Assembly (NCBI GenBank): GCA_019058245.1
Contig: JAHPZJ010000020.1
Coordinates: 40,936 to 104,935, forward strand
Source of the DNA: Promethearchaeota archaeon
Lineage (GTDB): Archaea; Asgardarchaeota; Lokiarchaeia; Sigyniarchaeales; SOKP01
Length of the DNA stretch: 64,000 bases
Direction: 5' to 3'
Shown piece after piece: positions 2,879 through 40,996 of the stretch (its first letter is position 1; every line of letters starts with the position of its first letter). A model generated the notes under the pieces. It was given only the letters and a program-made list of their open reading frames with translations, was not told where the DNA came from and ran no database searches. A program made the position numbers and the translations under genes.

Positions 2879-3904
2879 CTAGATGAGGAGATAAAGTTTA
2901 ATATTAAACTAGTTGTTTGTGGTGAAGGAAAAGTTGGGAAAACTTCAATAATAGATGCTTTTTTAGGTAATGAAGTTCCTGAACAATACTTACCAACAAT
3001 CGGTAATGTCACTAATAAAAAAGAATATTTATTAAAGGAGAATGGTAAATCACTTAAAATTTTGATATCGATATGGGATTTAGGTGGTCAAAGATCTTTC
3101 AATCCATTTAATCCTTCAATATATACTAATACAGATATTGCTATTTTAGTTTTTGATTTAACTAGACCAGAAGAGACTTTAAAAAATTTAAAGAGAGAAT
3201 TCTTAAAAAATTTAAATCAAAATTCTGAAGATTTCTTATTACTTTATGTTGGAAATAAAATAGATCTACTTGAAAAAGATAATTCTTTAAAAATGGCAAT
3301 TCAAGAGTTCTTTACTCAAAATGATCATCTAATGCTAACATCCGCCAAAACAGGAGAAAATGTTGCTGATTGTTTTGAATTGTTATTATCAACTTATTTA
3401 AGAAAAGAGGAAATTTTAAATCCAGATCTAATTCTTGATAATCCCTCTAGTGTGTTTCATAATCTCATTGGCAAGGATGAGGAGAAATTAAAAAATAAAC
3501 TTATTAAAATAACTGAGATTGAGTCAGTCCTAGAAAAAATAAAACCGATACCAAAAACAGTAAAAGAAGAGAAAGTTATTGAGGAAGAAGCGAAGGAAGA
3601 TAAAGAAGTAAAATATTATGAATTTCTTAGAAAAGAATTAGATCAAAATGAATTACAAAGATTAGAAGTACTAGATCGTTTTTTAATAAGTTTATCAGAA
3701 TTAGATGATACAATAAAACATATTAAAAAATCAAAAACCACATCCGTGATTGGACTAATTGATGATTTAAAGAAAATTTTAATAAATGCTAAGAAAGAAT
3801 TTAAAAAGAATGCTAATTTAATGATAAAATTAAATTCAGAAGAATTTGAATTAATAAAGGTTATCTCCAAGTTTGATGAAGAACAATCTTTACTAAACCA
3901 ATAA
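2879..3904 (+). CDS. Rab/Ras-like small GTPase with a C-terminal helical extension; true start lies upstream of the ORF-track call and is non-canonical (exact codon uncertain)
   Basis: The frame upstream of 3062 reads DEEIKFNIKLVVCGEGKVGKTSII...YLPTIG (G1, G2), followed by DLGGQ (G3), NKID (G4) and SAK (G5). In-frame TAA at 2870-2872 and no ATG/GTG/TTG before 3062. Confidence 0.8.
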   Translation, partial: LDEEIKFNIKLVVCGEGKVGKTSIIDAFLGNEVPEQYLPTIGNVTNKKEYLLKENGKSLKILISIWDLGGQRSFNPFNPSIYTNTDIAILVFDLTRPEETLKNLKREFLKNLNQNSEDFLLLYVGNKIDLLEKDNSLKMAIQEFFTQNDHLMLTSAKTGENVADCFELLLSTYLRKEEILNPDLILDNPSSVFHNLIGKDEEKLKNKLIKITEIESVLEKIKPIPKTVKEEKVIEEEAKEDKEVKYYEFLRKELDQNELQRLEVLDRFLISLSELDDTIKHIKKSKTTSVIGLIDDLKKILINAKKEFKKNANLMIKLNSEEFELIKVISKFDEEQSLLNQ

Positions 3905-19078: not shown

Positions 19079-19681
19079 TTATTCAGCACTTTCTTCCCTA
19101 TTCAATATTTGGAATTTTTTCACGCTATAATAGATCGGTTTACTTAATCTATCAACCGTTGCAACTATTAAATCTTTACGTGAACCCATAGCAACTCTTG
19201 ACACCTTATCTAAATCTCTTAATTCAATAGGATCCCCTTCAAATACAGGGAATATTAAAAATTTCGCTGAGTCTTTTTCAAAATCAGCCCCTCTTTTATA
19301 TACTCGGAAATCTATACCATCTCCATAACCTGTCCGAACAATATATCCTCTTTTTCTTAAATCCATATAGATTATATATTTCTGCCATAACCTTTCATCG
19401 AATTTAGTAAAATATGTTAAAAGACTCTCAAAATCATATAATTTCTTATTTGAGTCATTATCTTCCCATAATAATATTCGATTCCTTTCACATAATAATA
19501 AAACTTCAACGGGATCAATGATTAAAACTTCATGATCATCATTCTTTTTTACTTTCGTACCAATATAAGATGTTGAATAAAATTCCTCAAAACCTTTTTT
19601 ATCTGTAATAACTACTTTATCCTTTTCGATTATTCCTTCTACTTGAATTTTCTCGACTTTTTCAGTTGAATCTTCTGTCAT
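19079..19681 (-). CDS. endA: tRNA-intron endonuclease subunit, probably the structural (non-catalytic) one
   Basis: YMDLRKRGYIVRTG..GIDFRVYKRG...RVAMGSRKDLIVA; the catalytic His position reads 'DSAKF'. Confidence 0.85.
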   Translation of the reverse strand: MTEDSTEKVEKIQVEGIIEKDKVVITDKKGFEEFYSTSYIGTKVKKNDDHEVLIIDPVEVLLLCERNRILLWEDNDSNKKLYDFESLLTYFTKFDERLWQKYIIYMDLRKRGYIVRTGYGDGIDFRVYKRGADFEKDSAKFLIFPVFEGDPIELRDLDKVSRVAMGSRKDLIVATVDRLSKPIYYSVKKFQILNREESAE

Positions 19682-23230: not shown

Positions 23231-23653
23231 ATGATACAAGAGTTAATGATTATTAATCAAGCCGGTCTAGCTTTATTTTATCATAATTTCATTGATAATG
23301 AAATGATTGAAGGTGATCAATCCTTAGCAGGCTATTTTGATATGATTTGTCGATTTACAAAACAAAGTTTTAAAGAAAGTTTGAAAATCTTAGAATTAGA
23401 CAGTTTTATTTTTTTCTTTTATACTCATAAATCAAATTATCATTTAGTACTTAAATGTGAGAATAAATTATTTGATAAAGAATTATTCGAATCTATTTCT
23501 GAGAAGATTATTGAGGAATTTATAAAAGAATATAAAGCAATACTACAGGATTTTAATGGTGAAATTTCTCATTTTAAACCTTTTTCTAATCAAGTCATTA
23601 AAATCCTCAGAAGTCAATATAAAGGTTTTAGGAATGTCCTTTTTGCTGAATAA
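23231..23653 (+). CDS. Longin/sigma-adaptin-like small domain protein
   Basis: MIQELMIINQAGLALFYHNF...FNGEISHFKPF pattern typical of longin-fold proteins. Confidence 0.65.
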   Translation: MIQELMIINQAGLALFYHNFIDNEMIEGDQSLAGYFDMICRFTKQSFKESLKILELDSFIFFFYTHKSNYHLVLKCENKLFDKELFESISEKIIEEFIKEYKAILQDFNGEISHFKPFSNQVIKILRSQYKGFRNVLFAE

Positions 23654-23837: not shown

Positions 23838-24470
23838 ATGAGGATCAAACCAACAGTCAAAATAGACCCAGATGATGTAGTACGGTATTTATTGTATCAA
23901 CAGTTCTATTATGGGGATGATCGTATTTATGGACGTACTAAAGATCGATCTGAGCATATTAAGGGGGCTGGCAAAGCAATAGAAAATTTTTATTCGTTAA
24001 TTACTGAAATGATAAATTTAATCGATAAGGGAAAAATTCGCCAATATCTGGAATTTTTTAATGAAAATATTCATAACGTCCCTATTGATGCCATTTTGAA
24101 TAAATATAGAGAGTATAAAGATGCAATGGGGTCGGAACTTGACCATAAAATTACTTTAAATGTGATTATTGGTGATTGTTTAAGTGAAATTCAAACAAAA
24201 AGTTTTAACGCTACTATTACGAGTTTAATCGAATTCATTATGGAAAAGAAATCCCTAAAGCCCGAAAAAAAATTAGAAGTAAAAAAAAAGATTGAATCAT
24301 TGTATGGAAAAAGCGATCCTAATATTGGAATGATTTATAGCTTAAGTTTTATGGAATTCATAAGTAAAAAGATTCATGATAAATATATCAAAGAAAAATG
24401 TGAAAAATTATTAAAAAAATATTCTAAGCAAGTTCTAAAGGCAATAGAAAAAATTAAGTTTTTAGATTAA
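23838..24470 (+). CDS. Hypothetical protein
   Basis: 210-aa ORF; no motif recognised. Confidence 0.65.
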   Translation: MRIKPTVKIDPDDVVRYLLYQQFYYGDDRIYGRTKDRSEHIKGAGKAIENFYSLITEMINLIDKGKIRQYLEFFNENIHNVPIDAILNKYREYKDAMGSELDHKITLNVIIGDCLSEIQTKSFNATITSLIEFIMEKKSLKPEKKLEVKKKIESLYGKSDPNIGMIYSLSFMEFISKKIHDKYIKEKCEKLLKKYSKQVLKAIEKIKFLD

Positions 24471-24530
24471 TATTTATCAACCAATTTTAATGACTAAACT
24501 AATATTTAAGCAAAAAAAAATATTAAAAAA

Positions 24531-24563
24531 AAAGAGAAAAGAGAAGCCGGCTTTTTTCTCTTT
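24531..24563. terminator. Hairpin between convergent genes; candidate bidirectional terminator
   Basis: AAAGAGAAAA(GAG)AAGCCGGCTTTTTTCTCTTT, about 40 nt past the Ubl stop, flanked by A/T tracts. Confidence 0.45.
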
Positions 24564-24601
24564 AAACCCCGTGATAAATACGTTTCTCATTAATATTTTA
24601 C

Positions 24602-24856
24602 TTAAAATCCACCTGCTTGTGTGGCCATTACTGTGATCACATCTTTTTTTGGATGGATTCCTATCTTTGCAAACTTTAATTGATCAGGCAATACTTTACC
24701 TTTAAAAATGAATTGTATTGCGAGGATTGGATTTAATTTATATTCACGTTGTACAGTTTTTTTGATCTCTGCGATTGAATTATTAGGATCAAGCTCAATA
24801 AGTTTAATTGCTTGATCTGGAGGGACTCCGGTCAGTCTAAATCTATATTGGGTAAT
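24602..24856 (-). CDS. Ubiquitin-like protein (84 aa) ending GG-F; ATT start; absent from the ORF track
   Basis: Manual translation: (M)TQYRFRLTGVPPDQAIKLIELDPNNSIAEIKKTVQREYKLNPILAIQFIFKGKVLPDQLKFAKIGIHPKKDVITVMATQAGGF*. It matches ubiquitin patterns (P..SI..IK..., QxIFxGKxL.D, terminal GG). GTGTGA lies 6 nt before ATT, with in-frame TGA TAA just upstream. Confidence 0.85.
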   Translation of the reverse strand: MTQYRFRLTGVPPDQAIKLIELDPNNSIAEIKKTVQREYKLNPILAIQFIFKGKVLPDQLKFAKIGIHPKKDVITVMATQAGGF

Positions 24857-25013
24857 TTTTTATCACACACTTTTTATTATTTATTCAATTAAATTGGTTA
24901 GATATAAATTATCAAGATGCAATATTAAGGATTTTTGTTCAACATCCCGAACTTTAGTTTAAATATTGAGTAATTCTCTCTTTTTCAACTCTAAACAATT
25001 TTTTGAAGTTTTT

Positions 25014-25211
25014 TTAGAATCGAAATGGCTCTGGAGGGGGACCTGGTCTATCAGGTGGGCCTGGAGGGTGAATTGGTCCGGGTTTAGGTAATGGTGGAGA
25101 AGGAAACCTCCCTATTTTGTGTTCTAAACCTAAAATTCGTTGTTCTATTTTATCCAACCTTTCTTCAATAACCCTTAACCTCTTTAATATGTTGGGGTCT
25201 TCTATTGTCAT
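25014..25211 (-). CDS. Small coiled-coil protein with a proline-rich C-terminus
   Basis: LKRLRVIEERLDKIEQRILGLEHKI followed by PSPPLPKPGPIHPPGPPDRPGPPPEPF; GTGA before ATG. Confidence 0.7.
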   Translation of the reverse strand: MTIEDPNILKRLRVIEERLDKIEQRILGLEHKIGRFPSPPLPKPGPIHPPGPPDRPGPPPEPFRF

Positions 25212-25403
25212 TTTATCACAATAAATTTATTGATTTTTTAATAATTTCCCAATTTCTAACATTGATTTCCTAATTTTTATAATTTTACTTATAGCTAGAA
25301 CGTAAATATACTAAATTTATATATATTTGTTTTTCTGTCTTATTTTAGTCTAAGTCCAGAAAAAAAGTATAATCTTATATATTATTGAATATATAATAGA
25401 ATT

Positions 25404-40258: not shown

Positions 40259-40996
40259 TTATAGTGAACATATGCAATCCTCATTCTTTACAATATCAAT
40301 AATATTAAACCTTAAATCTATTAGGTTAACCATAAGAAGTTTATTTTCCAAATTAGGAAGTCCTAATGTTGTTTTTATTACTTCTAAGGCTTCTAATGTT
40401 CCTAAGATTCCAGGTGTTACCCCAATCACTGGTAAGGGCCCTATATTGGGAGGTGTTTCCATAGATGAAAAAACACATTGATAACAAGCAGAAACTTTTG
40501 GATTAATAGTTATGATTTGACCATAAAAATCTTTTATTCCCGCAATTACACATTTTATGTTATTCTCCACAGCAATTTTATTAACTAAAAATTTAGTTTT
40601 AAAATTATCACTGCAATCCACAATAAAATCATATTTTTTTTCCTTTAGGTAATTCTTGATGGAATTATCATCAATGTAATCTTTATAGATGTTAATTATG
40701 ACTTCAGAATTGAGTTTTGTTAAAACTTCTTTTGCGGATTTGACTTTTTCTATTCCAATTTGAGTTTCATTATAAAGAATTTGTCGTTGCAGATTAGAGA
40801 TATCTAAAATATCATCATCTATAATAGTAAGTTGATTTATTCCTGCGGCTACAAGGTATAATGCAAATGGACTACCTAAACCTCCACATCCAATTTGAAG
40901 GATATTTAACTTAGAAATTTTTTCTTGTCCTTTCTCTCCAATAAAGGGAGATATTATCTGCCTTGAATATCTTTCCTTTTGTTTTTCAGTTAAGAT
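40259..40996 (-). CDS. ThiF/MoeB/E1-like adenylyltransferase (245 aa), ATC start; the ORF track has only the C-terminal half
   Basis: The upstream frame reads (M)LTEKQKERYSRQI...GQEKI...IGCGGLGS...DDDILDISNLQRQ, continuing to DCSDNF, CYQC and a terminal CxxC. AGGTGA-TAATAA-ATC, with in-frame stops directly before ATC. Confidence 0.88.
   Translation of the reverse strand: MLTEKQKERYSRQIISPFIGEKGQEKISKLNILQIGCGGLGSPFALYLVAAGINQLTIIDDDILDISNLQRQILYNETQIGIEKVKSAKEVLTKLNSEVIINIYKDYIDDNSIKNYLKEKKYDFIVDCSDNFKTKFLVNKIAVENNIKCVIAGIKDFYGQIITINPKVSACYQCVFSSMETPPNIGPLPVIGVTPGILGTLEALEVIKTTLGLPNLENKLLMVNLIDLRFNIIDIVKNEDCICSL

Follow-up and report, generated by a model that had tools for sequence, protein, structure and literature searches.

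The Ubl-B gene and its ATT start

The window analysed here is a stretch of 64,000 nucleotides of contig JAHPZJ010000020.1 from a Promethearchaeota archaeon (assembly GCA_019058245.1), and it carries on its minus strand a short gene for a ubiquitin-type protein. The features referred to in this work, all on the minus strand, are as follows.

24602..24856, minus strand: ubiquitin gene of Lokiarchaeia, 84 aa, called Ubl-B here; orthologue of Lokiarch_37670
24854..24856, minus strand: ATT start codon of Ubl-B
24863..24866, minus strand: GTGA, putative Shine-Dalgarno-like site, 6 nt before the ATT
24902..24908, minus strand: putative TATA-box-like TTTATAT, about 46 nt 5′ of the start, found by eye
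24695..24709, minus strand: Ile50-Phe-Lys-Gly53-Lys54, in which Ile50, Gly53 and Lys54 align with Ile44, Gly47 and Lys48 of ubiquitin
24632..24634, minus strand: Thr75 codon, an insert site in relatives, empty in this copy
24605..24613, minus strand: Gly82-Gly83 and the one-residue cap Phe84
24520..24573, minus strand: conserved 3′ element CACGGGGTT followed by a hairpin-like sequence and a U-run; probable terminator region
40259..40996, minus strand: MoeB/ThiF-type adenylase starting with ATC; unlikely to be the E1 of Ubl-B
19079..19681, minus strand: gene for a tRNA-splicing endonuclease, an enzyme of the type expected to cut the relatives' inserts

The frame of Ubl-B is intact, comprising 84 codons followed by TAA, and the protein ends in QAGG-F. 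Because TGA and TAA stand in frame two and three codons 5′ of the ATT (24860-24865), a start at ATG, GTG or TTG is impossible. The lack of a standard start also explains why the gene is missing from the ORF track, as the frame emerges only when table starts are allowed. At the start-codon position of 92 distinct orthologous genes we found ATG (46), ATT (36), ACG (5), ATA (2), TTG (2) and GTG (1). The GTGA motif recurs 5′ of the orthologues with a modal spacing of 6 nt to the start codon, and translation of Ubl-B is predicted to begin at the ATT behind this site. A preliminary description, made from the letters of the window alone, had reported the ATT start and the absence from the ORF track, and the upstream stops and the shared ATT bear out both. 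Its word ‘unannotated’ is right for the ORF track of the window but not for the ATG-starting orthologues, which are named ‘ubiquitin-like protein’ in NCBI.

Codon differences between Ubl-B and 91 orthologues amount to 3535 synonymous and 364 non-synonymous changes (about 10:1). Ubl-B is under strong purifying selection, and it is a real gene with an obligate ATT start. Having no standard start codon, it could be taken for a shadow ORF or for a pseudogene that has lost its ATG. The conservation pattern, as read from the sequences, contradicts and refutes this reading, to which we assign practically no chance: an ATT is common to 36 of the 92 orthologues, synonymous changes greatly outnumber the others, and 23 other long ORFs of the same genome, the ThiF gene starting at 40996 among them, have likewise only GTGA and an ATT, ATA, ATC, ACG or CTG. 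Across this genome (G000), ATA (31 versus 12 expected) and ATC (9 versus 3 expected) are enriched behind GTGA, as are ATG, TTG and GTG, with ATT weakly so (20 versus 14.5 expected).

No E2, E3/RING or JAB gene was identified beside Ubl-B, in the window or in the relatives' neighbourhoods examined, as the preliminary description had said of the window. Of 106 distinct regions downstream of the gene, 25 contain the CACGGGGTT element, and most of these belong to the same genus. A functional cluster with the genes at 23231-23653, 23838-24470 and 25014-25226 was considered and rejected; all three have no Pfam matches, and the longin-like and 210-aa neighbours of Ubl-B are lost beyond close kin. The gene at 25014-25226 (minus strand), which also starts with ATT, encodes a 70-aa coiled-coil and polyproline protein that a large part of the family retains 5′ of the ubiquitin gene. 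We also set aside a functional link between Ubl-B and the tRNA-splicing endonuclease gene; synteny spans the whole block, and we claim no such link because the two are neighbours by general synteny only.

Ubl-B is a ubiquitin-type protein of Lokiarchaeia

Residues 2-83 of Ubl-B are identical at 80 of 82 positions (98%) to Lokiarch_37670, which is labelled Ub and described as the ubiquitin of Lokiarchaeum sp. GC14_75 (Hatano et al. 2022, PMC9192718; Supplementary Data 1). On this sequence match, the gene is to be regarded as the already published Lokiarchaeum ubiquitin, and our finding as a rediscovery rather than an undescribed modifier. The two proteins differ in Ser27 and Glu30 of Ubl-B, which are Ala and Asp in Lokiarch_37670, and in the cap, F versus ISIIH, though both have GG followed by a short cap; the start in the window's genome is ATT. 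The suggestion that Ubl-B might be a separate modifier thus holds in that it is no part of the operon system described below, but not in the sense of an undescribed protein.

Ubl-B matches the Pfam ubiquitin family PF00240 with 36.8 bits (cut-off 25.4), while the SUMO/Rad60-SLD family PF11976 stays below its cut-off (15.2 versus 23.8 bits). An AF2 model (pLDDT 92.8) has beta-grasp topology, the fold that a structure prediction had been expected to give, and matches folds of the ubiquitin family best, with a TM of about 0.75 to ubiquitin and Z up to 11.5. Ubiquitin-type matches fill the profile and fold match lists, from which ThiS, Urm1 and Ufm1 are absent. Ubiquitin, NEDD8, SUMO, ISG15 and Dsk2 are tied as fold matches at about 15-25% identity (NEDD8 18%). 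The preliminary placement nearer ubiquitin and NEDD8 than ThiS, MoaD or SAMP is therefore supported as far as a ubiquitin-type protein is concerned; the eukaryotic Ubls being tied, nothing is specific to NEDD8. Ubl-B is not ubiquitin or NEDD8 proper, given its low identity and its tail, MATQAGG instead of the LRLRGG of ubiquitin or the LALRGG of NEDD8.

Among 68 orthologues, Ile50, Gly53 and Lys54 are invariant. Matches to Ubl-B were found in 88 of 99 genomes of the class, mostly as one copy and with 61-100% identity; outside the class nothing exceeded 25-32% identity among the matches found, and the close relatives, where named, are Lokiarchaeota/Promethearchaeota. On these searches, Ubl-B is the ubiquitin that nearly all Lokiarchaeia have, in most cases as a single copy. 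Our Ubl tree was used only for the distinctness of groups, since it is built on 85 columns and leaves many forks open; it contains no NEDD8, SUMO, UFM1 or URM1 sequences, and a mis-picked row (L186) was disregarded. Domains resembling Ubl-B at 39-51% identity also occur inside proteins of 400-2200 aa (G138, G186:C234, G267:C31, G305:C5, G310:C13, G335:C132).

The C-terminal GG and its cap

The GG expected to be conserved in orthologues is so: G82 is invariant and G83 is kept in at least 90% of the 68 orthologues. What follows GG varies, with no residue in 22 of the 92 orthologous genes, I in 25, F in 15, V in 8 and, in the others, residues including L, K and N as well as short tails. The Phe cap does not characterize the family, and about a quarter of orthologues stop at GG. 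Because GG is kept while the residues beyond it vary freely or are missing, the pattern is that of a cleaved pro-peptide. A need for a processing protease, proposed from the GG-F end, can accordingly be upheld for the allele of the window and not for the family. Caldiarchaeum pro-ubiquitin is matured by Rpn11 (PMC5654768), and an intact JAMM motif, HxH-x7-S-xx-D, is present in several proteins of the window's own genome. The genome's JAMM proteins include one at C20:3612-5201, three on C24 and one at C8:26.3 kb. A JAMM/MPN+ protease would thus be a candidate for removing Phe84, whereas alleles ending at GG would skip trimming.

Alternatively, Ubl-B could act mainly non-covalently, like Hub1 or a UBL adaptor, with a vestigial GG. 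The sole published experiment is indeed a non-covalent signal, the yeast two-hybrid interaction of Loki ubiquitin with a UEV/Vps23 protein (Hatano et al. 2022, PMC9192718); related domains lie inside long proteins, and some distant relatives have no GG. The cleaved pro-peptide pattern of the tail argues against such a role, which we consider very unlikely.

In the tail of Ubl-B, Thr79 and Ala81 occupy the positions of ubiquitin Arg72 and Arg74, and the tryptic remnant on a target, as calculated from sequence, would be 12 residues, Asp72 to Gly83, rather than GG. Proteomics with standard K-GG antibodies would for this reason overlook Ubl-B conjugates, so that diGly proteomics, put forward earlier as a check, is unsuited to the purpose.

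Which E1 and E2 serve Ubl-B

The relatives of the window's genome in Lokiarchaeia have two separate E1/E2 sets. Set A is an operon of RING, Ubl-A (ending in STAG), E1-A, E2-A and JAB, and E1-A adjoins its own Ubl-A wherever it is present in the genomes examined. Set B consists of E1-B and E2-B, with no Ubl gene nearby. E1-B is 530-570 aa long (414-446 aa in deep lineages) and has GxGxxG, CxxC, a catalytic Cys (AACT) and a UFD; E2-B has about 170 aa. E1-B was found in 91 of 99 class genomes and in 36 of 39 same-genus genomes searched; it forms one clade (96/99 support). E1-A, E1-B, E2 and UEV genes were not found in the window's own assembly, which is 76% complete.

In eight of eight genomes without E1-A (four genera, two of the genomes single-contig), Ubl-B is the sole PF00240 match, at 74-95% identity, and E1-B and E2-B are both retained; the absence of Ubl-A was the criterion by which these genomes were chosen, they amount to only 3-4 independent losses, and one of the set (G129) retains a weak Ubl-A-like match. 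PF00240 can miss divergent Ubls. In the deep-branching G240, G253, G254 and G256, a UEV homologue lies directly 5′ of E1-B, with 36-40% identity over its C-terminal two thirds, and in G254 E1-B has E2-B and a JAB gene behind it. Searches of 16 genomes with Ubl-B turned up a UEV gene in all but 6. No demonstration of conjugation by the Ubl-B family was found in the accessible literature. From co-retention and gene neighbourhood, we infer that Ubl-B most likely uses E1-B and E2-B. No report of this pairing was found in the literature within our search, beyond which most subscription papers lay.

Conjugation of Ubl-B by the operon's E1-A and E2-A, or by either E1 unspecifically, is unlikely in our estimate. 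It would account for G305, which has two Ubl-B copies and E1-A/E2-A and in which E1-B/E2-B were not found, and it draws on the sister relationship of the E1-A and E1-B clades (91/81 support). The eight genomes that retain Ubl-B without E1-A speak against it, as does the Ubl-A gene that E1-A has beside it.

Quite unlikely, too, is activation without an E2 by a small ThiF, either of the MoeB type or of a small, patchy clade that we call E1-D (about 280 aa), which would make Ubl-B a SAMP/Urm1-like tag or a sulfur carrier. E1-D genes lie at L032/L047:7320-8273, L036:1160-1999 and L150:11286-12140; E1-D is a neighbour of the ubiquitin gene in two loci and, in G254, of the E1-B/E2-B/JAB cluster. In favour of a small ThiF, G144 has an E1-D gene directly 3′ of Ubl-B, read in the same direction, L036 has one at a distance of three genes, and the ThiFs found in the window's own assembly are of the MoeB type only. 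No ThiF gene placed for G207, G177, G147 or G213 is an E1-D, however, and none was found in the 76%-complete assembly of the window; and the sequence and fold of Ubl-B are of the ubiquitin type, with invariant equivalents of Ile44, Gly47 and Lys48. The ThiF of the window (40259-40996), which the preliminary description had offered as an E1-like activator, is a poor candidate and was rejected as the E1 of Ubl-B: it has no catalytic-Cys motif and no C-terminal UFD, and it groups with MoeB-type ThiFs. We retain E1-B and E2-B as the preferred pair.

Other modules were seen in relatives. G177 and G210 (L138:882-3335, L141:847-3378) have a third one, of JAB-like, E1 (294 aa) and E2-like genes and a convergent Ubl ending in VIGGS or VVGG. 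By eye, an E1 in L140:1483-2328 (G207) and L137 resembles UBA5 of the UFM1 system, and a run of three kinds of gene at L142:756-3498 (G213), JAB, long E1-like and nucleotidyltransferase-like, resembles a CBASS-type defence operon.

Putative mini-introns in the ubiquitin genes of relatives

The frame of the window's Ubl-B is uninterrupted and has no insert. Some orthologues carry bulge-helix-bulge (BHB) inserts of 29-32 nt. Four sites are affected, with as many as three inserts in one gene, and several of the inserts block the GG tail. An insert inside the Thr75 codon extends about a dozen homologues in the databases to 93-95 aa or makes them stop early. Inserts at this codon are found at the following places.

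L033:4214-4258
L036:4214-4259
L058:428-472
L061:1480-1524
L065:12934-12978
L075:1504-1548
L076:1504-1548
L077:1506-1550

The Thr75 inserts comprise 13 distinct alleles of 30-31 nt, and six of them contain a stop, with which the GG tail is lost if no splicing takes place. All 13 have a perfect 4-bp central helix in BHB register, against 0.31 expected from shuffles, and covariation is 0.376 versus 0.218 shuffled and at most 0.16 when slid; the alleles are related and so are not 13 independent events. Two 3-nt bulges accompany the helix at frame-restoring junctions, and removal of the inserts in silico regains both the frame and the GG tail. The pattern of the Thr75 insert had 3 true matches among 151 genomes, i.e. 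a minority; further matches in L063, L064, L067, L068 and L074 lie in other genes, have no helix and were discarded as chance. Structure is more relaxed at the other sites, Asp14/Gln15, Lys61 and Gln80, with inserts as follows.

L058 and L065: ubiquitin gene of 255 nt, three inserts each
L073:505-535
L038: about 3385-3415

We infer that these inserts are tRNA-type mini-introns that would be spliced out. A search for RNA data with one allele, the stop-bearing L061, listed no data set containing it, which counts neither for nor against splicing. BHB introns in Asgard protein genes were unreported in the literature we could search, most subscription papers being beyond it. As a separate observation, E1-B genes with internal stops occur at G323:C87, G303:C78, G265:C16, G030:C178, G019:C52 and G159:C108, and E2-B is split at G135:C79; these are probably the same kind of mini-intron.

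A working model and its consequences

Taken together, we propose, with a probability of roughly 0.7, a pathway in which Ubl-B would be translated from its ATT, trimmed by a JAMM protease, conjugated through E1-B and E2-B and read by UEV. The free Gly83 would be adenylated and passed as a thioester via the unlinked E1-B and then E2-B to target lysines. Where UEV/Vps23-type receptors are present they may read the Ile50 patch, whose part is suggested by its ubiquitin equivalents, binding being known from the two-hybrid result with the orthologue. This pathway would run parallel to the operon of RING, Ubl-A, E1-A, E2-A and JAB. The broader reading, to which we give somewhat better than an even chance, is that Lokiarchaeia have two ubiquitin-type cascades, a stand-alone ubiquitin with unlinked E1-B/E2-B tied to UEV and the operonic Ubl-A, and that part of the family needs tRNA-endonuclease splicing of the ubiquitin mRNA before a GG-ended protein can be made.

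As the gene was already known, what is new is the indirect assignment of E1 and E2 and the mini-introns in the ubiquitin genes of some relatives. The ‘Loki ubiquitin’ of the literature is not that of the Loki E1/E2/RING/JAB operon, and reconstitution therefore probably needs the other E1/E2 pair. Since ATT, ACG and ATA starts and mini-introns lead gene callers to miss or truncate Ubl-B, its apparent absence from genomes in Asgard surveys cannot be relied on. If one archaeon indeed runs two cascades in parallel, this would bear on the pre-eukaryotic split of ubiquitin and its sister modifiers.

Comparison with known systems

The operonic counterpart to Ubl-B in its own lineage is Ubl-A, which also matches PF00240 but is 15-23% identical to Ubl-B, has an acidic N-terminal tail and a STAG end, often occurs in 3-5 copies and has been lost in several lineages. 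It is Ubl-A, and not Ubl-B, that sits in the archaeal type of cluster of Ubl, E1, E2, RING and JAB. The window's own genome has a stand-alone Ubl-A copy at G000:C13:155762-156097 (L079), with the acidic N-tail and STAG rather than GG.

With the ubiquitin of Caldiarchaeum subterraneum (PMC5654768), encoded with Rpn11, E1, E2 and RING, Ubl-B has the ubiquitin fold in common (6fnn, TM 0.75). Like this protein and the canonical Asgard ubiquitins, it has the hydrophobic patch residue and a pro-form that would need JAMM cleavage; unlike the Caldiarchaeum and ...RTEGG proteins, it is not operonic and has no Arg before the GG tail. The ...RTEGG ubiquitins of deep Lokiarchaeia, which with Heimdall AB125 represent the canonical Asgard ubiquitin, are 13-29% identical to Ubl-B and form a separate clade. 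Both kinds occur together in G240, G253 and G254. The genomes searched from the two main families yielded no ...RTEGG ubiquitin. In deep lineages it lies near an E1 (L165, L166, L172, L174, L180, L183), with a PF00240 domain at the C-terminus in G240 and G256.

Archaeal mRNAs with BHB introns are those of cbf5 in Crenarchaeota and HVO_1309 (review PMC10485636), the only spliced archaeal mRNAs named in the searchable literature. The relatives' inserts have the same short length, 4-bp central helix and two 3-nt bulges, but the host gene is a ubiquitin, there are four sites with up to three inserts, splicing is predicted, and the window's copy is intron-free.

Eukaryotic ubiquitin, NEDD8 and SUMO resemble Ubl-B in fold (Z 10-11.5), in the equivalents of Ile44, Gly47 and Lys48, in a capped GG precursor and in a gene unlinked to its own E1 and E2. 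Eukaryotic ubiquitin itself is 24-26% identical and has Arg72 and Arg74 where Ubl-B has Thr79 and Ala81, and the structural model points to no preference of Ubl-B for any single eukaryotic Ubl.
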